Positions 1-34,146 of a stretch of DNA of 64,000 nucleotides are shown here, one piece after another. Source of the DNA: Candidatus Kapaibacterium sp. Its GTDB lineage: Bacteria > Bacteroidota > Ignavibacteria > Kapaibacteriales > HRBIN21. The stretch spans positions 5,715-69,714 of the forward strand of contig CALKEU010000005.1 of NCBI GenBank assembly GCA_938084565.1, in the 5' to 3' direction. Numbering within the stretch: the first letter of the stretch is position 1; each line of letters begins with the position of its first letter. The position numbers and the translations under genes were made by a program. The notes beneath the pieces are model-generated. The model had not been told where the DNA came from. It did not search any database and was given only the letters and a program-made list of their open reading frames with translations.

Positions 1-1640
1 AGCACGAGCCCTTTGTGGGTGAGCTGGTGCTGGGCATAGAGCGTCAGGAGGCGCGGGCGGACGGAGAAGAGATCGTTGTTGAGCCCAAGGGGAGGTATCC
101 ATGGGGCGAAAATTTCGCAGTAGTGTAACTCCTGCAGGCGGAGTTCGGCACCTGTTTTGAGCTGATTCTTCTCGGCCAGGAAGGCTGTCAAATCGGCTTT
201 CACCGTGAGTTCGCGCGCAAAGCGCTGGTGCCAACTCCAGGCTGTGCCAATGTCATAGAAGCCGTCGCCGGGGATGATCCCCGTACGGGTGGAATCGCCT
301 GTATCGTAGTACTGTGGAGGGAGGGTTGGGATGTCTTGGGGCTCGCTGTATTGGGTGTAGTCCCGTCCGTTGGCGTCGCCGCGGGTGTACCATCCAGTAA
401 AGCTGAGGCGGAATTCAGTGTAAAGACGCGGACCCAGACTCTGCTGCCATGCCAGTGAGTGGAGTTGGGAGAGGGTCGAGAAGGTTAGCGCACCATCGAA
501 GTGCCCTTGGAATTTGTACTGGTAGCCCGGCTCCGGGGGGAGGTAGTCGAGCGTAGCTGATACGGTACGCAAGTTTTGGTTGAGTGCCATACTACGGGCC
601 GTCGTGTAGAGGAGTCGTGTCGTCGGGGTCAATTGCCAGCTCAGCTTGAGGAAGGCAGAGAAACTGTTGTCCTGCCGTTGCGCAAGCCATGCAGGGAGGA
701 TCGGGGAGCGCAGCTGAACGCGAGCAAATTCTGGAACGAGCCCATCGCTAAAGGAGGCCTCGGCATTCAGGACGAAGCCGAGCTGCCCGGGCAGCCGGAG
801 CCCAAGGCGCGGCAGGAGCCAGCGTGTCAGCGGTTCGGGGCCGCTGAGACTGAGGCTGTACCGATAGCTCTGGTAAGAGCTGCCCGTATCGCGATCGTAG
901 GGGTTGCGGCGATGGAGACGCCATTCAGGGCGCGCTTGGAGGCGCGCTCGCAGTGAGCGTGTGGGTTCGGCCGTGCGGATGTTGATAACTCCTGACGTGG
1001 CTTGCCCATACTCGGCTGCAAAGCCGCTGGTGAGGAGCTCAATCTCTTGAACAGCTTCCGGAGGGAGGGTCAACCCTCCACCAGAGCCCGCCAGCGGATC
1101 CTGGACCGAGATGCCATCGATGAGATAGGCTACCTCGTAGCCACGCCCGCCACGGAGGTGAAGCGTGTTGTCCTGTACCAACACCCCCGCTTGCTGGATC
1201 AGCGCATCCGTGATTGTGGATACGGCAGAGCGTTCGAGCTGCTGCTGCCCAATGCTCCGAAGAGATTGCGTTTGCTCAACATCCACCAGTGGTCGCTCCC
1301 CGATAATGACAACCTCCTGCCCAAGCGTAAGAGCCGTCTCTTCCAGACGGAGCACAAGACGCGTGGTATCGCCCGGCCGAATGCGGATGCCGCTGTGCCG
1401 GAGTGCCTTGTATCCTAGGAGAGTTGCTTCCAGCACGTATGTTCCTGCCGGAAGATTGCGCAGCATGAAGCTTCCGTCAGGGGCTGTAATGGTGCCATAC
1501 GTAGTGCCGACAAGGCGGACAGTAACCGAGCGAAGCGGTGCGCCAGTAGCAGCATCCACCGCACGACCGGCGAGTGCCCCGGTCTGTTGTGCCCACAGAG
1601 GGAGAGCAAGCAAGCCACCCAAGAGACTACGGCAGATCAT
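1..1640 (-). CDS. TonB-dependent receptor, N-terminal part (signal peptide, carboxypeptidase-regulatory-like domain, plug); 3' end lies beyond the window start
   Basis: Manual translation of the reverse strand from the ATG at 1640..1638 gives MICRSLLGGLLALPLWAQQTGALAGRAVDAATGAPLRSVTVRLVGTTYGTITAPDGSFMLRNLPAGTYVLEATLLGYK..., then a plug-like segment LGQEVVIIGERPLVDVEQTQSL...ITDALIQQAGVLVQ...HLRGGRGYEVAYLIDGISVQDPLAGSGGGL...AEYGQATSGVINIRT. The frame stays open to position 1. The start ATG overlaps the TGA of the upstream gene (caATGA). It is absent from the ORF track because it has no in-window stop. Confidence 0.65.
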   Translation of the reverse strand, partial: MICRSLLGGLLALPLWAQQTGALAGRAVDAATGAPLRSVTVRLVGTTYGTITAPDGSFMLRNLPAGTYVLEATLLGYKALRHSGIRIRPGDTTRLVLRLEETALTLGQEVVIIGERPLVDVEQTQSLRSIGQQQLERSAVSTITDALIQQAGVLVQDNTLHLRGGRGYEVAYLIDGISVQDPLAGSGGGLTLPPEAVQEIELLTSGFAAEYGQATSGVINIRTAEPTRSLRARLQARPEWRLHRRNPYDRDTGSSYQSYRYSLSLSGPEPLTRWLLPRLGLRLPGQLGFVLNAEASFSDGLVPEFARVQLRSPILPAWLAQRQDNSFSAFLKLSWQLTPTTRLLYTTARSMALNQNLRTVSATLDYLPPEPGYQYKFQGHFDGALTFSTLSQLHSLAWQQSLGPRLYTEFRLSFTGWYTRGDANGRDYTQYSEPQDIPTLPPQYYDTGDSTRTGIIPGDGFYDIGTAWSWHQRFARELTVKADLTAFLAEKNQLKTGAELRLQELHYCEIFAPWIPPLGLNNDLFSVRPRLLTLYAQHQLTHKGLV

Positions 1641-3193
1641 TGTAATCCGAAAGCCTCAAGCAGAATGCGTTCCAAGAGCTGTTCGGCTCCCCCGGAGCGG
1701 TTGAAGAGATGCAGGGGGAAATTCAGGAAAAAGAGCCGACGAGAGCCGCTCCGAACCCCAACGATGGGGGTCCCTGCGTAATAGGGGCTCGGGGGTAACC
1801 GATAGAGCGGGAAAGCCGTTGCATTGGGGAAGAGAGCGTGGAGGCCAACGGCTACCCCGCGCTCCTTGACCAGAACGGGGTAGGCACCCTCTGGCACAGT
1901 GCTGTCGGGTAGCAGGGCTGTACCATTTGGCAGCGCTGCAGGTGTGGAGAAGAGCTCGCGCTGACTGAGGCTATCGACAGGGGCAATGTCCGTATAAGCC
2001 GTCGGGGAAACGAGGCTCGGCAGAGTTATCACCAGCAGGAGTTTCCCGCCCGAGCGTAAGTATTCTGGCACTACAGCGTAGGCGACCTCGAGCGCCCACT
2101 GCGGATCACCGTACCAGACTACGGCCTCGAAGAGGCGCAGTGTCTCGATGAACATGGGACTCAGGAAGGGAGGAATGTTCCGTGGCGGTGTGTGCGCCGT
2201 TCGTCCGGAGCGGATGTCGAGGACATCGAACCTGTGGGCAAAGCGTCCACCGGCAATGCGCTGGAGGGCACCGGTGTAGAAGGTGTCGGCTCCGTCGGCA
2301 ATAGCGTAGTCGTGCAGTACCAGAAGTGGACCGCGAGGTTTTCGTACATACCAGCGCCGGCCTGGTGGAGGATACTCGAGCACAGGGCTGTGAAGCCCAC
2401 CGATATCGACGGCTCGGAGGAAGAAGCGGTTGTCTGCATTGGGATACAGCCCATCAGCTTCGCGAAGGGTGATAAACTCCGCCGTCGGAGGTAGCTGGGA
2501 CCACCGGCTAGTGTCATTGAGCGCCCATTCGTAGTAGGCAATGTGGCCGGGACCATCGGGATCGAAGGCGGTAAAGCGGAAGGTGGCAACGGTAAAAGTC
2601 GTCTCAGGGAGCCATACGCTCCGGGCAGCAGCATCTGTGGTATCGCTCCCCCAAAACAGTCTCGGAGGGCTGTTCCGGACGGGGTAGCGCAGGCGTGCGG
2701 GAGTAAGGTCGACCGCCCCCTCGAGCCCGAGAAAGGGCTCCCCGTCATCGTGGATGCCATTCCCGTTGAGATCGCTAAAGGCAAACCGATCCCCCTCTCG
2801 GGGCCGAGGGCTGGCGGAGTTGTCCACAGCAGCTACGGCGAAGGTGTAGATCGTATCTGTGGATCCAACGGCGAGCTGGACGACGGTATCACGACGCTCC
2901 GTATAGTACCATGCCCGACCGTCGAAGGAGAGGAGGAAGCCGACAACAACTCCATCAGGATCATCGCCACGCCAGAAGAGATGGGCTTGGCTGCGCTGGG
3001 GGGTGGCAATAGTGTCAACCCAGAGGACCGTCTCCGGTGGAAGATTATCTCGGGGGATACCTTGGAGCCCTTCAGCACAGCCGGCGAGCACTATCGCACA
3101 GACGGGCCAGCACTTTCCCCGCTTTCTCCACCTCATTCCCCACTCCACTCTCCTGCCCTGTGCCTCTGTGCTGTTATTCCCCTCTGCCGACAC
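1637..3193 (-). CDS. hypothetical lipoprotein (about 500 aa), translationally coupled to the downstream TonB-dependent receptor
   Basis: 518-aa ORF. The internal Met at 3136 gives MRWRKRGKCWPVCAIVLAGCAEG, a lipobox-like LAGC. The stop overlaps the receptor start. No recognisable catalytic motif. Confidence 0.5.
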   Translation of the reverse strand: MSAEGNNSTEAQGRRVEWGMRWRKRGKCWPVCAIVLAGCAEGLQGIPRDNLPPETVLWVDTIATPQRSQAHLFWRGDDPDGVVVGFLLSFDGRAWYYTERRDTVVQLAVGSTDTIYTFAVAAVDNSASPRPREGDRFAFSDLNGNGIHDDGEPFLGLEGAVDLTPARLRYPVRNSPPRLFWGSDTTDAAARSVWLPETTFTVATFRFTAFDPDGPGHIAYYEWALNDTSRWSQLPPTAEFITLREADGLYPNADNRFFLRAVDIGGLHSPVLEYPPPGRRWYVRKPRGPLLVLHDYAIADGADTFYTGALQRIAGGRFAHRFDVLDIRSGRTAHTPPRNIPPFLSPMFIETLRLFEAVVWYGDPQWALEVAYAVVPEYLRSGGKLLLVITLPSLVSPTAYTDIAPVDSLSQRELFSTPAALPNGTALLPDSTVPEGAYPVLVKERGVAVGLHALFPNATAFPLYRLPPSPYYAGTPIVGVRSGSRRLFFLNFPLHLFNRSGGAEQLLERILLEAFGLQ

Positions 3194-3292: not shown

Positions 3293-4333
3293 CTACGGAT
3301 ACAAGATGAAGAAGCTCAGGCGGGGCACAACATCGGTTTTGCGTCGAGGAGTCTGCTCCTTGGCCGTGTATGCGAGTATCCACACATTGGGCATCAGGTG
3401 TACCTGGGGCACCGGTGCATAGTCCAGCCCGAGGAGGGCAAAGTGGTATATGAAGCCTTCTATCCGAGCATGGCGGTCTTCGTCAACCCGGTCATAACGA
3501 GCTACCAGCCGGAGCGATGGCTCACCCACCAGCTGGATATTGCCGGAGAAACTCATCCCCAGCGAGGAGCTCGTCTGTCCCTGGGTGGGGAAATTCCGGT
3601 GCGACCGGAGAAGAAATTCGGCCCCCGCCTGAAATGTCGGTCGTCGATAGCCCAGGAAGAGCTTCAGGAGGCTGACGGTCTGCTCCGCAGGGCGAGCCTC
3701 CCAGTCGCCGTAGAGCTCGATCCAAGCCCCCCGAAAAGGCTGTAGAGCCAGCTGTCCGTAGAGCTTCTTGTAACGGTCCGTTTCCAAGCGAACCCCATCA
3801 CCACTTCCCACCATGAGGGTACTCTGCAGAGCGGTGTTTTTCCCCAGAGGAATGCGGGTGCAGAGGGCTACGCCGAAATCGGTTGAATTGCCCCAGCCCC
3901 AGAAATCGGTCACCGTACGCTCTAGGCTCCGATAGCCCCAGATTTGCTCCGACAGGTGCCAGGTAGGAGTTGGTATGATCCCGCCTCGTAGCTGCAGGAA
4001 GGGTAATCCAAGACTATCCCACCTGACAGAAGCCTCTTTGACGAAGACCGTGTAGCGACGCCGACCGTCGAGCGATACGTCATTGCTCTCGAGCAAAAGA
4101 CGGCTCGAGCAGCGTGGTCCCAGTTGCGCATCAACCCACAGATAGAAACGGCGGAACTGGAATGCGTGGTCGCCTCTCTTGTAGGCCGCATACTGCGCCC
4201 GGCCACCAGTGGAATCGCCCCCTGCTTTGTAGAAGTAGTCTCCGAAGAAGTAGCCCCGGATGGACAGCTGAGACTGTGCCCATGCAATACCCGACAGCAG
4301 ACCGAGGAACACCACACGGCAGAAGGTAGCCAT
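3293..4333 (-). CDS. putative outer-membrane beta-barrel / porin-like protein
   Basis: 346 aa. Signal peptide MATFCRVVFLGLLSGIAWAQ, an alternating amphipathic Y/F/W-rich composition, and a C-terminal aromatic-rich end (FFILYP). Confidence 0.45.
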   Translation of the reverse strand: MATFCRVVFLGLLSGIAWAQSQLSIRGYFFGDYFYKAGGDSTGGRAQYAAYKRGDHAFQFRRFYLWVDAQLGPRCSSRLLLESNDVSLDGRRRYTVFVKEASVRWDSLGLPFLQLRGGIIPTPTWHLSEQIWGYRSLERTVTDFWGWGNSTDFGVALCTRIPLGKNTALQSTLMVGSGDGVRLETDRYKKLYGQLALQPFRGAWIELYGDWEARPAEQTVSLLKLFLGYRRPTFQAGAEFLLRSHRNFPTQGQTSSSLGMSFSGNIQLVGEPSLRLVARYDRVDEDRHARIEGFIYHFALLGLDYAPVPQVHLMPNVWILAYTAKEQTPRRKTDVVPRLSFFILYP

Positions 4334-4481
4334 CGTACGTACAGCCCCAGAGAGTACAACATGCCTTTGCGCCTATGGCGCACACAAACCTAAGCTCCAT
4401 GAGGCTTCAGGAGGTATGAGCAATCTGACAAGGGAAGCTGAGATAGGTCAGCCGTGAGAAACTACCGGAGTGCGGGGTACT

Positions 4482-5210
4482 TCAGCGGCGTCGCCGCAGA
4501 CCGATGAGGAGCTGGAGTGTGATGGCCAGAGCAAATGAGCTTATAGGCGGAACCAGAAGGAGAGCCATTCCCCAGCTCAAGCGCCAATGGCCGGTTTCTC
4601 TATCGAGCTCGAAGCAGCGGAGCGCTACATCGGTACCAGGAATCGGGTAGGAGAGTACGAATTCCCCGCGGGCCTCGCGCACGAGATCCCACACAAGTAC
4701 CGGATCCTGAAAGCCTTCCATACGGCGGAGAAGGTTGCCGCGCTGATCGAGGACACAGAGCATAATCGAGTGATCGAACTCCCTGCGAGTGCTGTCGTAG
4801 TGCACGGAATACCCGAGAGCTGTCAGAAGCCGTGGAACATGTTCTTGCAGGAGGAGCCCCCACCGCCACGTGGAGTGATCGGTGAATCCAAGGCGCTGTG
4901 CCGTTGCTCGGACATCCTCAAGCCTATCTCGTGGATCAAAGCTCAGAGCCACGACAGCATACCCCTGCGGGGTTGTGCCTATGGCCTGCTTTAGGTACAA
5001 CAAGTACGGGGAGCAGAGCCCCCCACAGCGGGCCGAAAAGAGGGTGAGGAGGATGGAGTGCGAACGTATGAGGCTGTAGAGGGTTGTCTGCTCCCCGGTG
5101 GCAAGGACGAGCCGAACATCCGGTATCTTCCGCAGATAGTAATGGCCCTCGTTCAGCTGAGCCCACAGAGGGATTGCACTGATCAGGCCGAAAACACTAC
5201 ACGCCAGCAT
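4482..5210 (-). CDS. SCO1/SenC-family copper chaperone (thioredoxin-like, CxxxC)
   Basis: The ORF runs 4482..5288; the likely start is the Met at 5210 (MLACSVFGLISAIPLW, a TM/signal segment). It has a CGGLC (CxxxC) motif as in Sco proteins and sits immediately downstream of oxidase subunit I. Confidence 0.55.
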   Translation of the reverse strand: MLACSVFGLISAIPLWAQLNEGHYYLRKIPDVRLVLATGEQTTLYSLIRSHSILLTLFSARCGGLCSPYLLYLKQAIGTTPQGYAVVALSFDPRDRLEDVRATAQRLGFTDHSTWRWGLLLQEHVPRLLTALGYSVHYDSTRREFDHSIMLCVLDQRGNLLRRMEGFQDPVLVWDLVREARGEFVLSYPIPGTDVALRCFELDRETGHWRLSWGMALLLVPPISSFALAITLQLLIGLRRRR

Positions 5211-6604
5211 CGTCGCAGCACATAGATGACGAAGGGGACTACTGCGGCCAGCACCAGCAGGGCGAAGAGACCCCCGACAAGAGCCCATAGATGCCCATCG
5301 CTGACGAAGGCCGGATACTTGTCGACTCGCCGCATGACTGACAGTGAGCCCGCAATGTAGAAGGCGAGCACAAACCCTACCCCGCCGAGCAGGTACAGCG
5401 TCGTAACGGGACGGTAGAGCCGGCTACCATCATCTCCACTCTTTTCCCGCACAAACCACGTGATGAAGCCCAGGCTGAAGAGAACATTGCCCAAGAGGTT
5501 GTACGTGTGGAAGTGCGCTGGTACCCATAAGGTGTTGTGGAGGACGAAGTTGTTTGCTACAATGGCATCCAGGATGGCGCCTAGTCCCCCGATAATCCAG
5601 AACATCACACCAGCGAAGAAGAACGTTGGGGCCAGCCACCATTTCATACCCGAGCGGTACACCGTGCCGAGCACAGAGAAGGTTGTAACAGCCACGGCCG
5701 GAATCGGAGCAATCCACGAGGCCAACTGTCCAATGTACTGCACGACTGTTGGCTGCACGAAATCCATGTAGAGGTGATGGAAGTAGGCCGTCCATACAAC
5801 GACCAGCACGAGGTTCCACGCTAGCGCAACAAAGGGTTTGGTCTTGTAGGGTTGCTTACCAGCAAGGGCCGGGAAGAGCTCGTAGAGGGTTGCAATGCCA
5901 AAGTAGAGCATCTCGTTGACTAGGGTGTGCCCGAAGAAGAAGGTGAGGTTCTTCATGAGGAGCGCATCTTGCGTGGCCCCGCTGGCGTACTGGATCAAAA
6001 ACAGCCCTAGTAAGATGACCGCTGCAATGAAGGCAGGGATTAGTCCGAGCAGCGTCGTCGTTGTGATGAGGATGAAGGGAGGTGTCTCGGGTGTACTCTT
6101 CCCCAACAGGTGCTGCCACGCCAGGGCTTGTGTCAGCGGGTACCTCCGGAGGATAGCCACCAAGAGCCCCAGGGACCAAATGAACCAGCCAATCCCTAAG
6201 CTCCCTAGGGAGAGCAGAAAGACCAAAGTGGCCCATTCACTCGTGCGTGCATAGAACGGGAGGGGGTAGAGGAAGTACCATCCCGTGTGGAGATCCCCGC
6301 CAAAGATCGCTGCTAGCAGGAGGCCAACGCCAACGAGCGTCAGGACATATCCGACCGTTGCCGGCCAGACCTGCACGTTGACGTAGCGCTGCAGGAGATA
6401 GCTCACCCCTGCCATGCTCATGACAAACCAGATCCCAACCATGAGGAGGCCATGAGCGGTCATGAGGGAGTAGAAGGTCAGCGAGGAGAGCTCGAGCACA
6501 TTGGCCTGGTTCAGGCGCATGAGAATGCCGAAGAGAATAGCGATCGGGAAAACCACAGACACTGTGATAATCCACGTGGCCGTAAGGCGGTCCAATGCCG
6601 TCAT
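5183..6604 (-). CDS. heme-copper oxidase subunit I (B-family / ba3-like)
   Basis: 473 aa, polytopic. It has the HH CuB-ligand pair (AYFHHLYMDF), the helix-10 His pair context (VPAHFHTYNL), and an FFFGHTLVNEMLYF helix-6 region. The partner is a short CuA subunit II. Confidence 0.8.
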   Translation of the reverse strand: MTALDRLTATWIITVSVVFPIAILFGILMRLNQANVLELSSLTFYSLMTAHGLLMVGIWFVMSMAGVSYLLQRYVNVQVWPATVGYVLTLVGVGLLLAAIFGGDLHTGWYFLYPLPFYARTSEWATLVFLLSLGSLGIGWFIWSLGLLVAILRRYPLTQALAWQHLLGKSTPETPPFILITTTTLLGLIPAFIAAVILLGLFLIQYASGATQDALLMKNLTFFFGHTLVNEMLYFGIATLYELFPALAGKQPYKTKPFVALAWNLVLVVVWTAYFHHLYMDFVQPTVVQYIGQLASWIAPIPAVAVTTFSVLGTVYRSGMKWWLAPTFFFAGVMFWIIGGLGAILDAIVANNFVLHNTLWVPAHFHTYNLLGNVLFSLGFITWFVREKSGDDGSRLYRPVTTLYLLGGVGFVLAFYIAGSLSVMRRVDKYPAFVSDGHLWALVGGLFALLVLAAVVPFVIYVLRRCWRVVFSA

Positions 6605-6620
6605 GGTGTCCTCCGCTCAG

Positions 6621-7169
6621 TTATTCGACAACGAAGCGTGCTTGCATCCCAGCGTGAGCCGCGCCGCAGTACTCCAAACACTGGGCAATGTATTCCCCAG
6701 GCTGGTCGAAGCGCCAGCGCAGGCGATTGATATACCCCGGCATGGCCTGGACCTGAGCCACAATACGCCCATTGGGGGCGTAGAGCGCAAAACCGTGATT
6801 GACGTCAAAAGAGGTGACCCGGAATTCCACTACTTGCCCCAGAGGCAGTACGAGAGTCTGCCCTAAAGCTGCTGCGTAGTCTCCATCAGTCTCAATAGGG
6901 CGTTCTGACAGGGCAAAGGCGAACTGACGGCCAACTACGTGAATGACTCGTGCGGGTGTCTCGCTCGCATAGAGGAAGTATGGCATGCGGGAAAGTGTCA
7001 GGGCAGTAAAGATGCCGACAAATCCTACAAGCCCAACGAACACCCACCGGCGTAAGGGCTCAGCCGAGACAGGTGCTGCTGTCTTTGAACTCTGCCAAAA
7101 CCACCAGAATACTGCGGCAATGATGAACGCTCCGATGAGGAACAACATCAGTATCGTGCCCTGTGACAT
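6621..7169 (-). CDS. cytochrome c oxidase subunit II (single TM, CuA cupredoxin domain)
   Basis: 182 aa. One N-terminal TM helix. CuA motif CLEYCGAAHAGM (C-x-E-x-C-G-x-x-H-x-x-M) with an upstream His (DVNHGFAL). The short single-TM form is typical of ba3-type subunit II. Confidence 0.8.
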   Translation of the reverse strand: MSQGTILMLFLIGAFIIAAVFWWFWQSSKTAAPVSAEPLRRWVFVGLVGFVGIFTALTLSRMPYFLYASETPARVIHVVGRQFAFALSERPIETDGDYAAALGQTLVLPLGQVVEFRVTSFDVNHGFALYAPNGRIVAQVQAMPGYINRLRWRFDQPGEYIAQCLEYCGAAHAGMQARFVVE

Positions 7170-7178
7170 GGGGTCTCC

Positions 7179-7955
7179 TTATTCCTGTGGAACAGACCGA
7201 GCGTATGTCAGCAGTGGAAGGGTGGTCAGCAAGACAGCGCCGGCGATATTGCCAAGCGTGACAGGAATCTGGTTCCACAGCCACCAGTCGGCCACTGTGA
7301 TCTGCGGGCTGCCGAGCAAGATTGCCGCAGGCAATACGAACATGTTCACAACGCTGTGCTCATACCCGAGAGCGAAGAAGGCCATGATGGGGAGCCACAT
7401 CGTCAATACTTTGCCGGTGGTTGTTGTCGAGATGAAGGCGATCACCGTCCCGAGCGTCACCATCCAGTTGCAGAGAATCCCCTTCAGGGCAGCAATACCC
7501 CATCCGGCAGGACCCAGCGCCTGATAGGCGAGCGTCTTGCGAGAGGCGAGTTGAAAGAGCAAGCCGCTGAGTTTGTCGTCATGGAGGGTGAGAGCGAAAA
7601 CCAGTGCATAGAAGACTCCCCCCAGTAGGTTCCCCACATATACCCAGCACCAGTTACGCACGACGGCTCCTATGGTCAGCCGTCCAGACAAAGCGGCCAG
7701 AGGCAGCAGAGCAAAGTTGCCTGTTGCAAGTTCCAAGCCCAACAAAGCCAGGAGCACAAATCCTACAGGGAAAATCAGGGCACCGACAATCGGTGGCAGG
7801 CCCTGGGCGTGGGGAACAAGGGCCAGCGAGGTTGCATAGCCCAGTAAGGCACCCGATAGAAAACCTCGGACTAGCAGTATCCGCCGTGGCAATGTGGCTT
7901 TCTTCTGTGCCACGGCCAGCATGGCGTTCACGGCCTCTTCAGGGTGCAGGTACAT
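7179..7955 (-). CDS. formate/nitrite transporter (FNT) family channel
   Basis: 258 aa with 6 TM helices. It has FNT-like segments (LLVRGFLSGALLGYA, GxELxTGN-like LGLELATGNF, WNQIPVTLGNIAG). It ends 10 nt before coxII. Confidence 0.7.
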   Translation of the reverse strand: MYLHPEEAVNAMLAVAQKKATLPRRILLVRGFLSGALLGYATSLALVPHAQGLPPIVGALIFPVGFVLLALLGLELATGNFALLPLAALSGRLTIGAVVRNWCWVYVGNLLGGVFYALVFALTLHDDKLSGLLFQLASRKTLAYQALGPAGWGIAALKGILCNWMVTLGTVIAFISTTTTGKVLTMWLPIMAFFALGYEHSVVNMFVLPAAILLGSPQITVADWWLWNQIPVTLGNIAGAVLLTTLPLLTYARSVPQE

Positions 7956-8158
7956 CGCTACCCAATGTGGACGATGATGCTCAGATCTATCTCTGATCTC
8001 ATGCGACAGCCTTGCACAAATATATCGAACTCCAATGTTTTGGCCTCCTCAGTTGCTGCCCTCTGCTACGACTTGGAAGGAGGGCTGGATTGCCTATTTT
8101 TGCGTGGCGTGCTCGCTGCAGGTGCTGAGTCTATGCCCAATTTGGGGTAGGCTCGGAG

Positions 8159-8305
8159 AATAGGGAAGCAGGTGTAATTCCTGCGCGGTCCGTGCCGCCG
8201 TGACGGGGGACGAATCCCCAAAGCCGTAAGGCAGCCACTGTCCGCCGTGCGCGGATGGGAAGGCAGGGGAGGAGGATGAGCCCGAAGCCGGAAGACCTGC
8301 CTGCA
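8159..8305 (+). promoter_or_regulatory. cobalamin (AdoCbl) riboswitch
   Basis: AATAGGGAAGCAGGTGTAATTCCTGCGCGGTCC...GACGAATCCCC...GCCGTAAGGCAGCCACTG...GAGCCCGAAGCCGGAAGACCTGCC. It has the conserved GGTG/AATCC elements, GCCACTG (8234..8240) and a B12 box GCCGGAAGACCTGCC (8287..8301), in the same order as in the E. coli btuB leader. It lies 120 nt upstream of the 8427 ORF with an SD-like AGAGGTGAG in between. Confidence 0.75.
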
Positions 8306-8426
8306 GCTCGGTCGGATATGTGGAGCCTACACTGGATAGGTTCCCCGACAGGGCAGGGCATCTGCTGTACCCTCTCTCCACCACCGGCGAGCATGCAGAG
8401 GGTGTGTTCCACAGAAGAGGTGAGCC

Positions 8427-9821
8427 ATGGTCTACCGTGTGAGTGCTCTGATGCTACTGCCCCTCTTGTTACTGGCACAACAGTACCGGTGGGAGTTTGT
8501 CCGGACCCATGCCGCTCTGGGGAAGACGCCGCTTGGGCTGTTCTGGGGGCCTAGGGAGAGCGATCCTGATCCGACCAGCACTGCTTACGTACTCTGCGCC
8601 GGCTTCGATGCGAACTTCAATGGACAAAACGATCCCGGTGATGAGCCTCCCTCGATTACCGTTGCATGGGAGGAAAACGGTGGAGAAGCAAGCCTGAACG
8701 TACGGCTCCCGTGGGGTGTGCCGAGCTTTCCGCTCCGCCCTGCAGTTGTACGCCAGAATGAGCAATTCGTGCTCTACCTTCCCCGGCGGGATCGGGTAAG
8801 TCGACACACCCTTCTTCCTGCGATCAATCCCTTCCACGAGGATACAGTACTGAGAAGCCCGGCACAAGCTGTGCTCGTGCTAGGGGATACACTCTTTGTA
8901 AGCCAGCGCATCAGCTCAGATCCTGAGGTTGGGCTCATTCTGCGACTCATCCCCGGCCAGGGGCTCGTGGATACCATTCGGCTGAGCAGCTGCCCCAATA
9001 TCCAACAGTTGCTCTGGGATGCTCGGCGGCGGCAGCTCATCGTGCTCTGCGAGGGTATATTTGGCCAGAGAAACTCAGTGTTGCACTTCCTGCCGAACGC
9101 CAAGGATTCGAACTCTGCATTGGTGCCGATTGGGGACACAGGGAACTCCATGCTCTTGGCTGGGGATACGCTGGTCGTGGTGGCCAATGGCTCGCATGAG
9201 GTCTACCTCATCGACCCTGCAACCCGTCTCTGGCATCGTATGCCCCTAGAGATTGGCACGAGCGGCTATGGAGGGCCGCGAGAGGCCATACTCTTGGAGC
9301 TTCCTACGGGACAGCGGACGCTCCTGGTGAGCACCTATAGCAGGGATGTGCGGTGGATTGATCTGGCCACCGGTGCTGTCCTCCAGATTTTACCGCTCAG
9401 TGGGCTTGCCGAAGGTATGGCCATACGGCGCCGTGGCGACACGCTGCAGTTGTGGGTGGCACAGCCCTTTACGCCCACTTACAGTCCTGATAGCTCCCTT
9501 GCCGTCTTCCAACTCGTGCTCCCAACCTCCGTAGCCGAGGGATATTCAGGGGGAGGGCAGCTCCGGATCCGACCTACCCTCGTGAGCGAAGGGCCGGTCT
9601 GGATCGAATGGGAGGTGGAGCACTACCACGGTCACACGGTGCAGGTGGAGCTCTTCAGCATGGATGGGCGGCGGTGCCATATGTGGCAAGTGCCCACTTC
9701 GCCGGCGGGGAAACTGATGGCGGCGGTGCCGCTATCACGTTTACTTGTGCCCGCAGGAGCTTACATCCTCAAGCTCACAGCGGGGTCTATGCAGGCCAGC
9801 GCCCCTGTCTTTGTCTATTGA
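8427..9821 (+). CDS. secreted beta-propeller-like protein with T9SS C-terminal sorting domain; riboswitch-controlled
   Basis: 464 aa. Signal peptide MVYRVSALMLLPLLLLAQQ. Repetitive beta-strand-rich middle. The C-terminus ...VPAGAYILKLTAGSMQASAPVFVY is typical of a T9SS CTD. Confidence 0.6.
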   Translation: MVYRVSALMLLPLLLLAQQYRWEFVRTHAALGKTPLGLFWGPRESDPDPTSTAYVLCAGFDANFNGQNDPGDEPPSITVAWEENGGEASLNVRLPWGVPSFPLRPAVVRQNEQFVLYLPRRDRVSRHTLLPAINPFHEDTVLRSPAQAVLVLGDTLFVSQRISSDPEVGLILRLIPGQGLVDTIRLSSCPNIQQLLWDARRRQLIVLCEGIFGQRNSVLHFLPNAKDSNSALVPIGDTGNSMLLAGDTLVVVANGSHEVYLIDPATRLWHRMPLEIGTSGYGGPREAILLELPTGQRTLLVSTYSRDVRWIDLATGAVLQILPLSGLAEGMAIRRRGDTLQLWVAQPFTPTYSPDSSLAVFQLVLPTSVAEGYSGGGQLRIRPTLVSEGPVWIEWEVEHYHGHTVQVELFSMDGRRCHMWQVPTSPAGKLMAAVPLSRLLVPAGAYILKLTAGSMQASAPVFVY

Positions 9822-9879: not shown

Positions 9880-11103
9880 CTATCGCTGTAATGATGCGGC
9901 TCGAATAACCGCCAGAAGCAGTATTGAGGATGCTCCGTGGGCAAGGAGAGCAAACGTCACAAGCCACTTCGGCGAAGCCTGGTAGAGCAAACCCATAGCT
10001 GCACTCCCGAGAAACCAGGCGATGCCGAAGGAAGCATTGAACAGCCCATAGGCTGTTCCTCGCTGCTCTAGGGGCACCATCGGTGCCAGAGCTGCACGGG
10101 CGAGCGATTCCTGTGCCCCGACTCCTATACCCCAGAGCAGTACCCCTCCGAGCGCCCAAGGAAGAGGACCCACAAAGCTGAGGAGTACGGCGCCGGCTGA
10201 GAGCAGAACAGCGCCAGGAAGCACCCACAAGCCTCTGCGGTCATAGAGTCGGCCGAGCACGAGAGCAGCCAGGGCATCACATCCCATGGCAGCGCCGTAC
10301 GAGAGGGGGATCCACGCTGCCGGCACATCCCTGTGCAAATGGAAAGCGATGAGGGCAAAATCAGCCGTTCCCGCTGCCCACAGTGCCATTGCCGCTGTGT
10401 AGAGCCAAAAGAGCCGCTTCGGCTGACCGATCCCCTGCTTCTTCCAGTTATGCTGTTGGTGCTCGGGGAAGGTCTCAAACGAGCGAGTAACCATCAAGAC
10501 GATGAGGCTTGCTACAGCAGGCAGGAAGAGCAGGGCAAAAGCAGTGCGATAGTGTCCGCCGAGGCTGAAAACAGCAGCAATGGCCAGAGGCCCCAGCAGT
10601 GCTCCAATCTGGTCCAGTGCCTCGTGGAGGCCGAAGCTACGACCGTATCCGAGGACGCTTCCAGCTTTTGAGAGGAGCACGTCGCGGGCTGGTGTACGGA
10701 GTGCCTTTCCAATGCGTTCGGCGATGATGAGCCCAGCGGCTCCTCCCCAATGGGATACCGTTGCCAGCAGGGGTAGGGCAAAGACGTTCATGGTATAGCC
10801 TACCAGCATCAGCAGCCAGTATCGGCCAGTCCGATCGCTGATGTATCCCGAAAGGAGGCGCAATGTGTAGCCGAGCAGCTCTCCAGCCCCAGCGATTACT
10901 CCAATAGTTGCAGCGCTTGCCCCGAGCAGCCCCAAGAATGGTCCTGTAATGCTCCGCCCTCCCTCATAGGTCATATCAGCCAGGAGGCTCACCAGGCCTA
11001 AAAAGAGGACAAAGCGCAGGGCTGACGCACGGATAGGTTCCGGCTCCATTCGAACACTCTCGGCAGTCTCAACCAGAGTCAGCAGACGTCGGCAACGGGG
11101 CAA
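9880..11103 (-). CDS. MFS transporter
   Basis: 407 aa, about 12 TM helices. MFS-like loop motif GYISDRTGRYW. Possible start at the Met at 11049. Confidence 0.75.
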   Translation of the reverse strand: MPRCRRLLTLVETAESVRMEPEPIRASALRFVLFLGLVSLLADMTYEGGRSITGPFLGLLGASAATIGVIAGAGELLGYTLRLLSGYISDRTGRYWLLMLVGYTMNVFALPLLATVSHWGGAAGLIIAERIGKALRTPARDVLLSKAGSVLGYGRSFGLHEALDQIGALLGPLAIAAVFSLGGHYRTAFALLFLPAVASLIVLMVTRSFETFPEHQQHNWKKQGIGQPKRLFWLYTAAMALWAAGTADFALIAFHLHRDVPAAWIPLSYGAAMGCDALAALVLGRLYDRRGLWVLPGAVLLSAGAVLLSFVGPLPWALGGVLLWGIGVGAQESLARAALAPMVPLEQRGTAYGLFNASFGIAWFLGSAAMGLLYQASPKWLVTFALLAHGASSILLLAVIRAASLQR

Positions 11104-14727: not shown

Positions 14728-17613
14728 TCAGCGCAGGAGGAGGAACGGGTGTACCTCGACGGTCCCATCGGGGAAGCGGGCCTGGAGCACATAGAAGCCT
14801 ACGGGGAGGCCGCGGAGGTCGAGCACTATGTCTCCACTGAGGCGCTGCAGAACGGGAGGCTGCCATATATGGCCCGTGAGGGTGCTCACGGACACAATAG
14901 CCGTCTCGGCCTTATGACCACTGTAGCGCAAATACAGCGAAGCCGGATTCGGTGTCAGGGAGCGTTTCGCAAGAGCTGGTTCAGCAAGTCCGGTAAGTGG
15001 CTGGATGCTCACATCATCCAGGAACCATCCTTCGGCGGTGCGAAGCGGCCCTGAAAAGAAGCGGAAGCGCACCCAGAGGAGTTGAGCTGTGTCGGGTGGC
15101 GTGAGGCGGTAGCGCTCGTGGCGCCAGTCGTCGGGAGTGACGGCACTATCGGCCCACGGCGCATAGAGTGAGGCGTTGTAGGCCCCAAGCCGAATCCACC
15201 GGTCCCACGTGTTCCAGGCAATTTCCACAAATCCGGTGTCCGAGGGGTGGATGAGGGCAGCATGGACGAAGCTCAGCTCTATGGGCATGGCTGGTGTGAC
15301 GGCGATGGGGAAGAGCATGAACGTATCGCGAGCCCGGTTTGGATATGGGCCTGACGGGGATTCCGTCAAGGCAAATGGCGGGGAGAAGAAGACCGTGGCG
15401 GTCAGTCCCCAGGAGCCGCTGTTGTAGTAACGAGGCATTTCTGGGGCCGCAAAGGGTTCGAAGAGTTCCGTGCGGAGGGGCCCAGCATAGAGGAGATAGT
15501 CCATGCTTGGCGAGCTCTCGGCCTCGCCTGCCATGACCGTGGCGTGGTAGCGGTAGAAGCCAGCTTCGGAGAGTATATCTATCACCGTGAGCGTGCGGCC
15601 AGTATCGGCCGTGTGCAGGGGGATACTCTGTATGAGGATCCCGTCGCGGAAGAGACGTAGCTGGCTTAGGTTTGTCAGGGGTGTTATTCCATCGGCTCGG
15701 AGGCGAGGCAGATGGATGTGGAGCCGGACGGTATCGGGGTACACGAGAGCACCGGAGACGAATTCAGGTGGGGCTGGCTGACGGGCACCACCGGCTCGGG
15801 CTGAATCCACTCGGGGCAAACTGGTGTCGGTGTCGGCCACTACCAGGAGCTCGTATCGATAGAGCTCGTGGGGCTGGAGAGCGGTGTCCAGATAGGTGGT
15901 GCGATTCTGCGGCAGTGTGGTGAGAATGTGGCCGTTGCGGCGCAGCACATACGTAAAAGTCGGCAGCGGCTGGCCAAAGACGCGGCCGTTCGGAGGATCC
16001 CAGCTGAGCTGTAGAGCCGTAGGGTTGTCAGGGAGGATGGTAATGCGAAAGTTCTCAGCCGGCATCGGGGCTCGGACGTTGATAGAGGCAGTATAGACAT
16101 CGTTGTCGGCAGGGTTGGTGATCGTGTTGCGCATATCTACCCAGGAGGGGTAAACACGGCCTCCGTAGAAGGCGCAACCGCTGTAATCACCGGCGAAGGC
16201 ATTGCCTCGGAATGGGTTCCGCCGTAGGTCCCAGAGGGTGTCCCCGATGCGGCGGTCTGTCCATGTGGTTCCACCATCGCTGGAGTAGCTGACCGAGACC
16301 GTAACGAGCACATTTTGCGGGTCATCGCGGCTATCCAAGTACATAATGGCCAGATCTCCCGTCGTGGGGTCGAGCGCCATCCACGGCCAGAACTGGTCTC
16401 CACTTGTGTCGGTGTGGACAATGATGGGGTCGGACCAGGTGAGGCCTCCATCGGAGGAGCGGGAAAAGTAGATGTTCGGTACGGGATCGGCGGCCCAGCA
16501 GAGGTAGAGCCATCCACGGCGTGGACCGGAGGTAGTATCGCAGACCAACACAGGATAGGTTTCCGCACGGACACCCCCTTTGACCGTATGGCGGACTCCT
16601 TCAGGAATACGCCGGGCCATCCCCAGCGGGCGATAGCGGTGGATGAGACGGGGAGGACTAAAGCTCTGCCCCCCATCCCGCGAGAAAGCAAACCCGATAG
16701 CTTTCTGCGGGCCGTGGTTCCAGACGACGTAGACGGTTCCGTCTGGACCAGTTGCCGCCAGAGGGAAGCTTTGCCCGTAGGTGGTGTCTTCCGAGGAGAA
16801 GGGTAAGCGCTCGCTCACCGGCACTGGCGTGCTCCAGGTCAGCCCTCCATCGCTGGAGAAGGAGAGCATAATCTGAGTGGAGGAGTCCCGCGGAATGACG
16901 CGCTTCCACGGGATGTAGAGCCGCCCGCGGTAGGGCGATCTTGTGCAGTGGTCAGCCGTGATGTAGTACTTGTCTTCGAATGCAGAGTCGGGGGTCATCG
17001 TGCCGCGGTGGAGGATTACCGGAATGTGCGGCTGCCACGTCCTCCCCTGATCGGTTGTGATGGCTACAAAGACCCCGTTTTCGCCTGTCGATAGGTTGAA
17101 GCCCCCGTAGCACAGGTAGCCACGCCCTTCCCCGTCGAAGGTCACCGAGGGATCGTTGGAGGAGACCCATTCAGGAAAGGGCTTGCCCAGGTTGATATTC
17201 CGCCACCGTCTGCCGCCGTCCTCGGAGACATAGACCCATGTGGAAGAGTTAGCACGGTAGTCCACGGCTGTGGCCAGTAGGTTGTGCGGATTGCGGGGAT
17301 TGACTGCAATGGAGGATTCATTTTGAATCGGCAGCGGATCCGTTTCTGGCTCGATGACGTTGATGTTCGGAAAGAGGCTCAGCCGCGGAGATACTTCGGC
17401 GGGGGCGAGAGGCAAGAGCGGTAAGCGTTGCTCGAGCTCTGGCCGGGGTTGAGCCTTCTCCATCAGGTGTCGGAAGGGGTTGGTGCCATCACGCGCCCAG
17501 AGGGCTACTGTACCGAGTACGACGGCTATGCTGCGGACCATGGTCGGCAAGGGGCTGTACAACTGCAGCGGTGAAATTACAGCTTTCCGAGAGTTCGCAG
17601 GAATGCTGAGCAA
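14728..17613 (-). CDS. BNR/Asp-box repeat protein (sialidase-like fold) with T9SS C-terminal domain
   Basis: 961 aa. Multiple Asp-boxes (SDGGLTW, SSDGGTTW, TTDQGRTW, SRDGGQSF). The signal peptide is at the internal Met (MVRSIAVVLGTVALWA). C-terminus LPVGFYVLQARFPDGTVEVHPFLLLR. Confidence 0.65.
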   Translation of the reverse strand: MLSIPANSRKAVISPLQLYSPLPTMVRSIAVVLGTVALWARDGTNPFRHLMEKAQPRPELEQRLPLLPLAPAEVSPRLSLFPNINVIEPETDPLPIQNESSIAVNPRNPHNLLATAVDYRANSSTWVYVSEDGGRRWRNINLGKPFPEWVSSNDPSVTFDGEGRGYLCYGGFNLSTGENGVFVAITTDQGRTWQPHIPVILHRGTMTPDSAFEDKYYITADHCTRSPYRGRLYIPWKRVIPRDSSTQIMLSFSSDGGLTWSTPVPVSERLPFSSEDTTYGQSFPLAATGPDGTVYVVWNHGPQKAIGFAFSRDGGQSFSPPRLIHRYRPLGMARRIPEGVRHTVKGGVRAETYPVLVCDTTSGPRRGWLYLCWAADPVPNIYFSRSSDGGLTWSDPIIVHTDTSGDQFWPWMALDPTTGDLAIMYLDSRDDPQNVLVTVSVSYSSDGGTTWTDRRIGDTLWDLRRNPFRGNAFAGDYSGCAFYGGRVYPSWVDMRNTITNPADNDVYTASINVRAPMPAENFRITILPDNPTALQLSWDPPNGRVFGQPLPTFTYVLRRNGHILTTLPQNRTTYLDTALQPHELYRYELLVVADTDTSLPRVDSARAGGARQPAPPEFVSGALVYPDTVRLHIHLPRLRADGITPLTNLSQLRLFRDGILIQSIPLHTADTGRTLTVIDILSEAGFYRYHATVMAGEAESSPSMDYLLYAGPLRTELFEPFAAPEMPRYYNSGSWGLTATVFFSPPFALTESPSGPYPNRARDTFMLFPIAVTPAMPIELSFVHAALIHPSDTGFVEIAWNTWDRWIRLGAYNASLYAPWADSAVTPDDWRHERYRLTPPDTAQLLWVRFRFFSGPLRTAEGWFLDDVSIQPLTGLAEPALAKRSLTPNPASLYLRYSGHKAETAIVSVSTLTGHIWQPPVLQRLSGDIVLDLRGLPVGFYVLQARFPDGTVEVHPFLLLR

Positions 17614-33800: not shown

Positions 33801-34146
33801 TACCGTTGGGGGCAAGCCCAATGAGCGGTGTGAGTCGCAGCGGGTTTGGGGCTGGGTGCGGATTCCACGAGCCGAGCTGATGGTAGCGCAGGAACAGAGG
33901 CTCATGGTCGAATGGAGCCACAGGAATTGCAGGAACAGTGGAGAGAGAAGCGCTCTGCTGCTCGAGGAATTCAGCAACAGAGCGGATAGTTCGGGGCGGC
34001 TGCGCATTCTCTCTGGGGACAGCCTGAGGCGGGAGCGAAGCAGCAGCACAGAGAACGCTCCAGAGGAATCCGGTAAGATACCACAGCGGTGCCATAACTG
34101 CTTTCCTCAGGGCAGGGACAAACGTACGGGCACAAATATATGCCAT
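30898..34146 (-). CDS. M4 (thermolysin-like) zinc metalloprotease with propeptide, C-terminal TolB-like beta-propeller and T9SS CTD
   Basis: HExxH with the downstream Glu (VVAHELTHGIT ... GALNESFSDIF). WD40-like propeller repeats (FSPDNRYLALVSP, SSDGRLASLV). C-terminus GLYAVRLHFPQHSRLRLFLWLH. 1082 aa. Confidence 0.8.
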   Translation of the reverse strand: MAYICARTFVPALRKAVMAPLWYLTGFLWSVLCAAASLPPQAVPRENAQPPRTIRSVAEFLEQQSASLSTVPAIPVAPFDHEPLFLRYHQLGSWNPHPAPNPLRLTPLIGLAPNGTPSWLEFSLGMARFYELPSPHSNAPPSRIPDLVSVLNLLTHHRERLRLVEPHRELRLLSLHTDELGISHLRFQQFYEGIPVWAADLYVHIQPSGELTLLNGRYIPTPVGAPTQPRLSPENAIERARNHVWQLTTFTPLPDILFELHPELQPFTASLLLFPHPLTQAVFLCYEVNVAANLVEHYTVFVDALDGSIRWSILNTCTLHVNPWHSSSPCPHHEPPQLLSRSTSSGVLQGTFVNASGTDLNGMQRSFRVYRHDDGMHYMIWDLPSLDRSGSQLPNRVKGGSITLTANYGDVDPQNPRLYHITSPTNTWNDPTAVSAHYNAYVCDSYYRSTHNRNAIDGQGGTIISIIHATYRGQPMDNAYWNGGLKIMVYGDGARDFKPLAGGLDVVAHELTHGITQHTANLVYQFQPGALNESFSDIFAVMVDREDFLLGEDITRTALALRDLANPSNPNVLSPQPSHMSQYANLPINQDNGGVHINSGIPNRAAYLLIQAIGREKAERIYYRALAHYLTRSSEFIDCRRAVIRAAQELYGSAEAQAAAQAFDGVGIYDGSGGGGRGNEVPPVQGGTWFISFILSDGRIALLRTSDGQSGIISPDNPQTKVLLSPDGFPLSQLSTARSGDRIYFINQQQQLAYADLTRGQFFVVSLPQLSALRNVCISSDGRLASLVTGVLDRSLYITDGQQVARLPLTPQVPDGEPVSTVWLADVMSWSPNMRDPRLAFDALNLLPLQTGDTLAYWNIYEVHFAGPALYELVPPRPEEFSLGNITYSNTDPDLVAFNYVDHRTGIFETLLANFQTGQIAALGTSQWTYRGQPLLDVQRPSFSPDNRYLALVSPRAGLLLVVDLQQGQVGALEAGQPLYHPRWFAMGATGIALSPEGREDVSVQVTAPSEILVRYELPEAGMLWLELLDLMGRPLLVSSPEWHSAGRHERRFSLPGVAPGLYAVRLHFPQHSRLRLFLWLH

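Follow-up and report, generated by a model that had tools for sequence, protein, structure and literature searches.

The window, as we call the whole 64-kb stretch of DNA that was analysed (64,000 nucleotides of contig CALKEU010000005.1 from Candidatus Kapaibacterium sp.), contains a cobalamin riboswitch and, under its control, a gene for a BtuG-like protein, and these are the subject of this work. In brief, the aptamer occupies positions 8103-8318 of the plus strand, and the first open reading frame (ORF) after it on that strand, at 8427-9821, encodes a protein of 464 amino acids (aa). The ORF lies between a divergent formate/nitrite transporter gene (7179-7955, minus strand; PF01226, E 8e-64) and a convergent major facilitator superfamily (MFS) gene (9880-11103, minus strand; PF07690), and is therefore monocistronic. 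The transcription unit of the riboswitch thus consists of a single gene, with no btuB, no cob gene and no gene for a B12-dependent enzyme. On this point the ORFs and the Pfam matches confirm an initial annotation of the window, which had described a single gene of this kind with the convergent MFS gene next to it.

RF00174 (Cobalamin) is the sole Rfam family above its gathering score in a cmscan of the whole window with Rfam 15. The match has 99.9 bits (E 8.6e-24; gathering score 31.5 bits) and spans model positions 1-189 of 189, so the aptamer is full length, with a P6 extension and a B12 box. The initial annotation had placed a cobalamin riboswitch on the plus strand and had quoted motifs from it; the covariance model agrees, and the quoted motifs can be located in the aptamer, with GCCACTG occupying 8234-8240 and the B12 box, GCCGGAAGACCTGCC, occupying 8287-8301. 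Three details have to be corrected. A start at 8140 cuts off approximately 37 nt of the aptamer, namely P2 and the 5' strand of P1, and the distance from the end of the aptamer to the ATG is 108 nt and not 120 nt. The riboswitch had also been called an orphan, a term that does not apply because the gene that it controls is B12-related, as described below.

The expression platform is the stretch between aptamer and start codon (8319-8426, plus strand), and a Shine-Dalgarno-like GAGGTGA is found at 8417-8423, ahead of the ORF. A terminator scan and a check for T-runs found no hairpin followed by a T-run and no terminator-like site in 8319-8426, and an intrinsic terminator in this leader was rejected. 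Two low-GC relatives, L019 and L022 (L numbers denote loci carrying homologues), do have a hairpin with a T-run in their leaders. Since the platform lacks a terminator, control is probably exerted at translation initiation or via Rho, and the mechanism would be that of an OFF-switch, translational or Rho-dependent. The hairpin at 8322-8344 is conserved, with compensatory changes in four pairs across six orthologues, and is a candidate for a P13-like hairpin acting as kissing-loop partner. The 5' strand of P1 (8111-8124) is able to base-pair with 8379-8392. In the minimum free energy fold of the full leader this strand is indeed paired some 65-75 nt beyond the aptamer (8379-8396), with 8384-8396 as its partner in the window and the equivalent stretch in L001. 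This alternative pairing of P1 suggests a strand exchange that governs access to the ribosome-binding region.

BtuG proteins have been described as Bacteroidetes-specific surface lipoproteins that are encoded beside btuB and always paired with BtuB, and their lipobox cysteine is followed by a lipoprotein export signal (Wexler et al., PMC6143338). BtuG accounts for the success of gut Bacteroides in competing for B12. Searched alone, the 464 aa protein has no Pfam match at E <= 1 and only two sub-threshold matches in NCBIfam. A single-sequence search of the PDB gave E-values of 0.011-0.36, with the YVTN propeller 1l0q at 0.011 and chains named 'YncE family protein' at 0.2. The relationship to BtuG is visible only with a family profile. 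We built this profile from an alignment of 26 sequences and searched it against all PDB sequences, where the three BtuG paralogues rank before almost all other entries. The top matches are BtuG1 (8blw_B, 8ptd_A and 8ptf_A; E 6.5e-19 to 1.1e-18), 1l0q is matched at E 7e-14, BtuG2 (8bmy, 8bn0, 3dsm, 8bmx, 8baz and 8bai) at about 1e-10 with 8.8e-11 as the best value, and BtuG3 (8okv, 8p97 and 8puj) at about 2e-8 with 2.1e-8 as the best value. The entries 8BLW chain B, 8PTD and 8PTF have been published for BtuG1, 8BMX, 8BMY, 8BAI and 8BAZ for BtuG2, and 8OKV, 8P97/8P98 and 8PUJ for BtuG3 (PMC10404256; bioRxiv 10.1101/2024.02.16.580637). The entry 3DSM is cited as apo-BtuG2 (PMC10404256; bioRxiv 10.1101/2024.02.16.580637), and the name in its PDB record is BACUNI_02894.

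AlphaFold2, run with the family alignment, gave a model of the 464 aa protein with a pLDDT of 88.3 and a pTM of 0.81. In this model, residues 3-17 form a signal helix, 22-364 contain about 28 strands, 370-373 are a linker of low confidence and 380-463 fold into a sandwich of seven strands. Fold searches return seven-bladed propellers. The predicted seven-bladed propeller corresponds to 8478-9536 on the plus strand (aa 18-370, approximately) and is, as judged from the profile search, a remote, permuted homologue of BtuG. The initial annotation had proposed a beta-propeller-like body and an analogy to BtuG; the structure prediction supports the former with confidence, and profile comparison goes beyond the latter, in that the two proteins are homologous at this level and not merely analogous. 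It had also spoken of BtuG/DUF4465-like families. Fragments of BtuG1 and BtuG2 rebuilt from HMMER output pass the model DUF5074 with 49.8 and 36.8 bits, respectively, against a gathering score of 27.2 bits, so that DUF5074 (PF16819) is the Pfam family of BtuG, and DUF4465 is that of BtuH. Five of the 26 homologues match DUF5074 weakly (best E 9.8e-5).

The order of the blades differs from that in BtuG. The blade with the EGxF motif, which in BtuG comes directly after the lipid anchor, is found at residues 209-212 of 464. BtuG blades 1-4 have their counterpart in the C-terminal half of the propeller (aa 197-368, approximately) and blades 5-7 in its N-terminal half, giving the order 5-6-7-1-2-3-4. 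When the family hidden Markov model (HMM) was aligned with a tandem BtuG1 sequence, a single alignment of profile positions 27-380 crossed the junction and scored 86.4 bits, compared with 68.3 bits for linear BtuG1. Half-profiles bore out this swap: the C-terminal half scored 70.0 bits against the N-terminal half of BtuG1 and 2.7 bits against its C-terminal half, and the N-terminal half scored 12.9 bits against the C-terminal half of BtuG1 and 6.8 bits against its N-terminal half. The best scores in the control sets of 200 shuffles were 1.4 to 4.4 bits, with 1.4 bits in the control for the N-terminal half against the BtuG1 C-terminal half. These alignments show a circular permutation of the propeller with respect to BtuG.

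In BtuG2, polar contacts with corrin side chains are made by Glu55, Gly56, Gln93, Asn107, Ser131, Arg135, Trp149, Ser195 and Gln219, and Phe58 stacks on dimethylbenzimidazole, while in BtuG1 the contacts include Phe60, Arg141, Arg244, Glu249 and Tyr290 (bioRxiv 10.1101/2024.02.16.580637). For the comparison we reconstructed residues 47-376 of BtuG1, which reproduced the published numbering (F60, R141, R244, E249, Y290). Conserved family columns align with BtuG contacts in four predicted contact motifs at 9051-9284 on the plus strand: C-E209-G210-I-F212 (9051-9062), G-D-T-G-N240 (the N at 9144-9146), N254-G-S256-H257 (9186-9197) and G283-P284-R285-E286 (9273-9284). In the profile alignment, E209-G210-I-F212 corresponds to E55-G56-x-F58 of BtuG2 and E57-G58-x-F60 of BtuG1, and N240 (GDTGN) to Q93 of BtuG2 (GDVAQ) and N95 of BtuG1 (GDTAN). 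Likewise, N254 (ANGSH, with H257 aligned to H110) corresponds to N107 of BtuG2 (VVNNSH) and N109 of BtuG1, and G283-P284-R285 to S131-P-R of BtuG2 and to R141 of BtuG1 (QPR). It should be noted that we count the BtuG2 arginine as 133 where the preprint prints 135, and treat them as the same P-R arginine. E209, G210, N240, N254, H257, G283, P284 and R285 are invariant in the 26 sequences and F212 is nearly so. The conservation of these residues is consistent with the propeller binding corrinoids.

Another conserved element of the propeller resembles a calcium-binding loop. It has the pattern V-D-A-N-F-N-G-x-x-D-x-x-D at 8601-8648 (aa 59-74), D61 is invariant, and D-x-[ND]-[FY]-[ND] is found in 161 of 172 family proteins. 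The motif is placed where BtuG1 has the B12 contacts R244 and E249, with an insertion of six residues.

The N-terminus, MVYRVSALMLLPLLLLA followed by QQYRW, reads as a classical, cysteine-free Sec signal of the signal peptidase I (SPI) type (8427-8477, plus strand; aa 1-17, with cleavage before QQ), in agreement with the signal peptide of the initial annotation. A17 and Q18 are invariant or nearly so in the family. Among 172 family proteins a lipobox-like match was seen in only 7, in most cases within the hydrophobic core of the signal. Four clusters, P0109, P0110, P0144 and P0163, do look like genuine lipoproteins of the same permuted family; they are about 360 aa long, lack the tail and end right after the propeller. 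Their signals end in FSC before SDDN, NAC before KEN, SSC before DKT and YSC before SEND, with acidic or polar residues after the cysteine. The permuted propeller thus appears to be displayed by either of two routes, a lipid or a tail of the type IX secretion system (T9SS), and a surface function is therefore favoured.

The C-terminal beta-sandwich (9549-9818, plus strand; aa 375-464, approximately) was assigned by profiles, hhalign and AlphaFold2 as a divergent T9SS type-A sorting domain. It has IRPTL in place of the usual PNP motif and keeps G414 and G444-x-Y446. The protein scores 15.4 bits against TIGR04183, for which the cut-off is 23, and has no match to PF18962 at E <= 1. Over the same alignment columns, 10 of the 26 homologues match PF18962 (best E 1.3e-11), the one at L008 with 45 bits. 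Profile positions 354-444 match the solved T9SS sorting domains 8glk_D, 8glj_D, 8qb1_A and 9whd_A, and the tails of the close and the distant clade match each other in hhalign with E 2.4e-4. A second protein of the window (57392-60385, plus strand), which has an IgGFc_binding domain and is likely secreted, also carries a Por_Secre_tail just below threshold (23.6 bits), and sub-threshold tail scores may therefore be a trait of the lineage. The T9SS sorting domain of the initial annotation thus stands as a homologous beta-sandwich, although the protein's own tail is degenerate. Its suggestion of a T9SS tail instead of lipidation fits the absence of a lipobox and the presence of a T9SS-type C-terminal domain, and from this architecture we infer export by the T9SS and anchoring at the surface.

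With a word-indexed search we obtained 27 relatives of the 464 aa protein. Thirteen are close (49-75% identity) and come from metagenome-assembled genomes (MAGs) of Chlorobiota and Bacteroidota; the distant ones are 21-33% identical, and several of them carry PF18962. An exhaustive HMM search extended the family to 240 clusters at E <= 1e-30 and 927 clusters at E <= 1e-10, clustered at 50% identity. Most members are 420-480 aa long, and many are 760-830 aa long with two propellers before the tail. The GTDB genomes that encode the family, whose loci were found with a 15-sequence alignment, belong to Candidatus Kapaibacterium, Ignavibacteria and unclassified Bacteroidota MAGs.

We found RF00174 upstream of the homologue and on the same strand in 24 of 26 loci scanned. 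The scores are 94-103 bits in L001, L003, L004, L006 and L007, 70 bits in L010, and 41.8-103 bits in the GTDB genome loci L011-L028, all 18 of which have the riboswitch. In L008 and L009, which are from one species, there is no RF00174 match; the stretch ahead of the gene is only about 100 bp long there, and a TonB receptor gene follows it directly. As the pairing recurs in each of the 24 riboswitch-positive loci, it is not a matter of chance. It reaches homologues of approximately 27% identity with unrelated flanking genes and is kept down to that level, which makes the association of riboswitch and gene older than the local synteny.

Some members of the family depart from the simple layout. 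The tandem forms (proteins P0035-P0043 and many others) have two permuted propeller copies and one T9SS tail, and in L014 and L016 such a double propeller (5866-8199 in both) is encoded between the riboswitch and a BtuB-like receptor. PorZ has two propellers and a sorting domain, as do the tandem forms of 770-800 aa; a relationship was rejected, as neither the Pfam scan of members nor the PDB profile search gave a PorZ match. L014 (CAYULF010000019.1) is labelled 'uncultured Hyphomicrobiales bacterium', yet it encodes a T9SS-tailed protein and agrees with L016 ('bacterium isolate Co_bin.359') in gene arrangement and coordinates; the contig is probably misbinned or mislabelled. The called genes of P0013 and P0014, and the ORFs starting at L010 7893, L021 3380 and L028 5773, run upstream into the riboswitch. 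Their 'KPEDLP' or 'KSEDLP' N-termini are the translated B12 box (AAGCCGGAAGACCTGCC) and thus an annotation artefact. In the sub-clade of L010 (9251-13017), L021 (4660-8366) and L028 (7134-10900), the BtuG-like gene is followed by genes for a BNR/Sortilin-Vps10 protein of 1055-1081 aa and a PAP2-family phosphatase. These genes form a riboswitch-controlled operon on one strand, with overlapping stop and start codons and without a receptor.

In L014 and L016 (the double propeller loci), L015, L017, L024, L008 and L009, the BtuG-like gene is directly followed by a gene for a TonB-dependent receptor of 560-681 aa, and the stop and start codons of the two often overlap. In the PDB, the receptor from L024 matches B. 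thetaiotaomicron BtuB1 best (8blw_A; E 1.1e-27 over residues 13-624 of 628), with BtuB2, BtuB3 and E. coli BtuB next in rank. Three receptors, those of L024, L014 and L008, were scanned against NCBIfam; in each case TIGR01779 (TonB-B12) came out as the best model, with a score under the equivalog cut-off. Two receptors of the window were considered as partners of the 464 aa protein and rejected as evident ones; neither is BtuB-like. The first (3-1640, minus strand), which runs off the left end, begins with a CarboxypepD_reg domain and has its best matches among heme and siderophore models, and the other (60348-62516, minus strand) is CirA-like. The partner BtuB of the window protein, if any, is outside the 64 kb.

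The left-end receptor is part of a conserved pair. In brief, a gene for a lipoprotein of 518 aa (lipobox LAGC; no match in Pfam, NCBIfam or the PDB) is followed by one for a TonB-dependent receptor that is about 940 aa long and has the CarboxypepD_reg N-terminal domain. The pair is found at 3-3193 (minus strand) in the window, at 3229-7574 in L006 and at 1173-5947 in L013. In L006 and L013 it is divergent and starts 97 nt from the riboswitch. In the window clade, a block of five genes (3293-7955, minus strand, in the window) separates it from the riboswitch. The block encodes the formate/nitrite transporter mentioned above, COX2 (6621-7169), COX1 (5183-6604) and two proteins without family matches (4482-5288 and 3293-4333). 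Besides the window, L001-L005 contain this block and L011 and L012 have at least part of it; L006, L007 and L013 lack it.

Four distant loci keep an MFS transporter gene divergently upstream of the riboswitch, on the minus strand (L010 6493-7707, L021 1982-3316, L027 3545-4930 and L028 4382-5809). The convergent MFS protein of the window does not match these at E 1e-3, and a link to MFS as a conserved partner was therefore rejected. Other likely secreted proteins of the window are an M4 (thermolysin-type) peptidase of 1082 aa (30898-34146, minus strand) and a BNR-repeat protein of 961 aa (14728-17613, minus strand).

Among known systems, the BtuG proteins (BtuG1/BT1490, BtuG2/BT1954 and BtuG3/BT2095) are the closest to the window protein. 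They share with it the seven-bladed propeller, the cobalamin riboswitch, homology at the profile level and the E-G-x-F, N, N and P-R contact residues of blades 1-3. The relatives of the window protein also have a BtuB1-like TonB receptor as a neighbour, as BtuG does, and both proteins are predicted to be extracellular. Where BtuG carries a lipobox cysteine and lipoprotein export signal, the window protein has a signal of the SPI type and, at its C-terminus, a T9SS-type domain. The window protein also differs in that it is permuted, fails DUF5074, is not encoded beside btuB and has a net charge far less negative than that of BtuG2. By four of these features, namely the curated model, blade order, lipobox and btuB neighbourhood, it falls outside BtuG/DUF5074 in the strict sense. 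BtuG is found in gut Bacteroidales, the family of the window protein in Kapabacteria and Ignavibacteria. With the type-A cargo of the T9SS (TIGR04183/PF18962; gingipains, mirolase and SprB-type adhesins) the window protein shares a layout of Sec signal, functional domain and beta-sandwich of about 85 aa. Homologues pass PF18962; in the window clade the tail falls short of the curated thresholds and the PNP motif is missing. In the literature library searched, no T9SS cargo that binds corrinoids came up. BtuH (DUF4465) and BtuJ of Bacteroides are likewise riboswitch-controlled extracellular corrinoid binders, which add to uptake by BtuB-BtuG and illustrate how surface binders of several kinds have been recruited to B12 loci. 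They are lipoproteins of different folds, and we detected no sequence relationship between them and the window protein. YncE of E. coli (3VGZ) and the Methanosarcina surface-layer protein 1L0Q have no link to corrinoids or riboswitches, and their alignments lack the EGxF, NGSH and GPRE motifs that are common to BtuG and the family of the window protein.

Based on these observations, we suggest that the gene encodes a B12-repressed, surface or secreted corrinoid-capture protein of the BtuG kind, and we regard this as reasonably probable. That it would work like BtuG is argued from homology, the conserved contact residues, riboswitch control and the linkage to BtuB in relatives. In brief, when adenosylcobalamin is ample, it would bind the aptamer, P1 would close and the downstream gene would be off; when B12 is scarce, the gene would be expressed. 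The product would then cross the inner membrane via Sec, with SPI cleaving before Gln18, and would probably cross the outer membrane via the T9SS, which would recognise the C-terminal sorting domain. After export, the protein would be anchored to the cell surface via its new C-terminus, or released. The propeller, in which the blade 1-3 residues that hold the amide side chains of the corrin and stack on the lower ligand are kept, would bind cobalamin or other corrinoids in its central cavity. We suppose that these are handed over to a BtuB-type TonB-dependent transporter, encoded elsewhere in this lineage and by the next gene in related lineages. Searches of the literature library for BtuG together with the T9SS, and for Kapabacteria together with B12, turned up no earlier account of a BtuG that is permuted or has a T9SS tail.

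A more far-reaching reading, which we hold to be possible but somewhat less likely than not, is that the family forms a branch of the BtuG superfamily of its own beyond the gut Bacteroidales, so far uncatalogued and comprising about 240 clusters (50% identity, E <= 1e-30). Through the permutation its corrinoid-binding propeller would hang from the C-terminus, and the T9SS would deliver it in place of lipidation. In several lineages, this one among them, it would have lost its linkage to BtuB and would act alone as a riboswitch-controlled B12 scavenger, perhaps as a released corrinophore. If so, it would be the first T9SS cargo for vitamin capture, and a natural example of a binding module exchanged between two routes of surface display. 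The locus places the BtuG module in environmental Bacteroidota, hot-spring Kapabacteria and Ignavibacteria included, with a blade order and a predicted export and anchoring route that differ from those of BtuG, in a form missed by current family models. Should the protein bind B12, vitamin acquisition would be added to the known range of T9SS cargo, and nature would have provided a test of what anchoring point and circular permutation do to the lid of a TonB receptor. Annotators of metagenomes would also have a marker of corrinoid scavenging for lineages at present scored as lacking BtuG. Versions from thermophiles could be used as robust reagents for corrinoid capture, much as BtuG2 already serves to remove corrinoids from soil extracts (bioRxiv 10.1101/2024.02.12.580003).

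Several findings weigh against this proposal. Taken alone, the 464 aa protein matches BtuG1 with an E-value of only 0.2 and does not match DUF5074 (PF16819) at E <= 1. The mapping of contacts is confined to BtuG blades 1-3, contacts in blades 4-7 not being alignable with confidence, and Trp194, Trp272 and Tyr316, which narrow the pocket of BtuG2, are likewise not alignable with the window protein. The propeller carries a net charge of about -5, whereas -18 is reported for BtuG2. The tail of the window clade is degenerate, falls below curated cut-offs and has neither the PNP motif nor a terminal K/R. No gene for T9SS machinery was seen in the window, where no search aimed at such genes was made. 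The 64 kb also hold no BtuB-like receptor, and both TonB receptors in them look like the heme or siderophore type. Finally, the fold of the expression platform is no more stable than that of shuffled sequence (z = 0.18), and for that reason we infer the strand-exchange step rather than read it from the fold.

The state of the tail bears on where the protein resides. A periplasmic corrinoid binder, either BtuF-like or a store, would result if the C-terminal domain had decayed and were no longer recognised by the T9SS. The low score against TIGR04183 (15.4 bits, cut-off 23), the absence of a PF18962 match at E <= 1, the loss of the PNP motif and terminal basic residue and the absence of an adjoining outer-membrane partner in the window clade all fit this explanation. 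We nevertheless consider it quite unlikely. The tail is full length and keeps G414 and G444-x-Y446 across the 13 close homologues, at 49-75% identity, and thus appears to be under selection; moreover, it aligns with tails that do pass PF18962. The second sub-threshold tail of the window, at 23.6 bits, suggests that sorting domains have diverged across the lineage rather than decayed, and the Bacteroidota-style export signals after the cysteine of the sister lipoproteins point to surface display. Cargo of the T9SS may be anchored or released. If released, the protein could act as a corrinophore, freed or shed on vesicles after T9SS export, which would scavenge at a distance like a hemophore and return corrinoids to a receptor instead of forming a fixed lid on BtuB. 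This would suit a monocistronic gene without linkage to any BtuB, as seen in the window clade, L018, L022, L023 and L025. It would also suit the permutation, by which the end of the chain, and with it any anchor, comes to lie behind BtuG blade 4 and not before blade 1, so that the geometry of the BtuG lid need not apply. Anchoring and release look alike at the level of sequence, however, six loci have the gene coupled to or adjoining a BtuB1-like receptor as expected of a stable pair, and the lipoprotein sister forms are cell-bound by design. Release is thus, in our view, unlikely.

A further explanation would keep the B12-repressed surface propeller and give it a ligand other than a corrinoid, such as a polymer, a metal complex or a different tetrapyrrole, or a B12-independent substitute role that is turned off while B12 is ample. 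In its favour, the window protein matches no curated family, and propellers of the YVTN/YncE type have many different ligands; 1l0q and YncE rank level with BtuG in the fold searches, and 1l0q is matched by the profile at E 7e-14. The operons of L010, L021 and L028, with a BNR/Sortilin protein and a PAP2 phosphatase in place of a receptor, also fit it. Against it, the three BtuG paralogues are the best profile matches, the invariant residues are the ones that touch the corrin ring in BtuG, and the receptor encoded next in relatives is closest to BtuB1, which is the partner of BtuG1. Moreover, the B12-independent isozymes known from cobalamin riboswitches are enzymes of the cytoplasm and not secreted propellers. 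We therefore regard a non-corrinoid ligand as unlikely.

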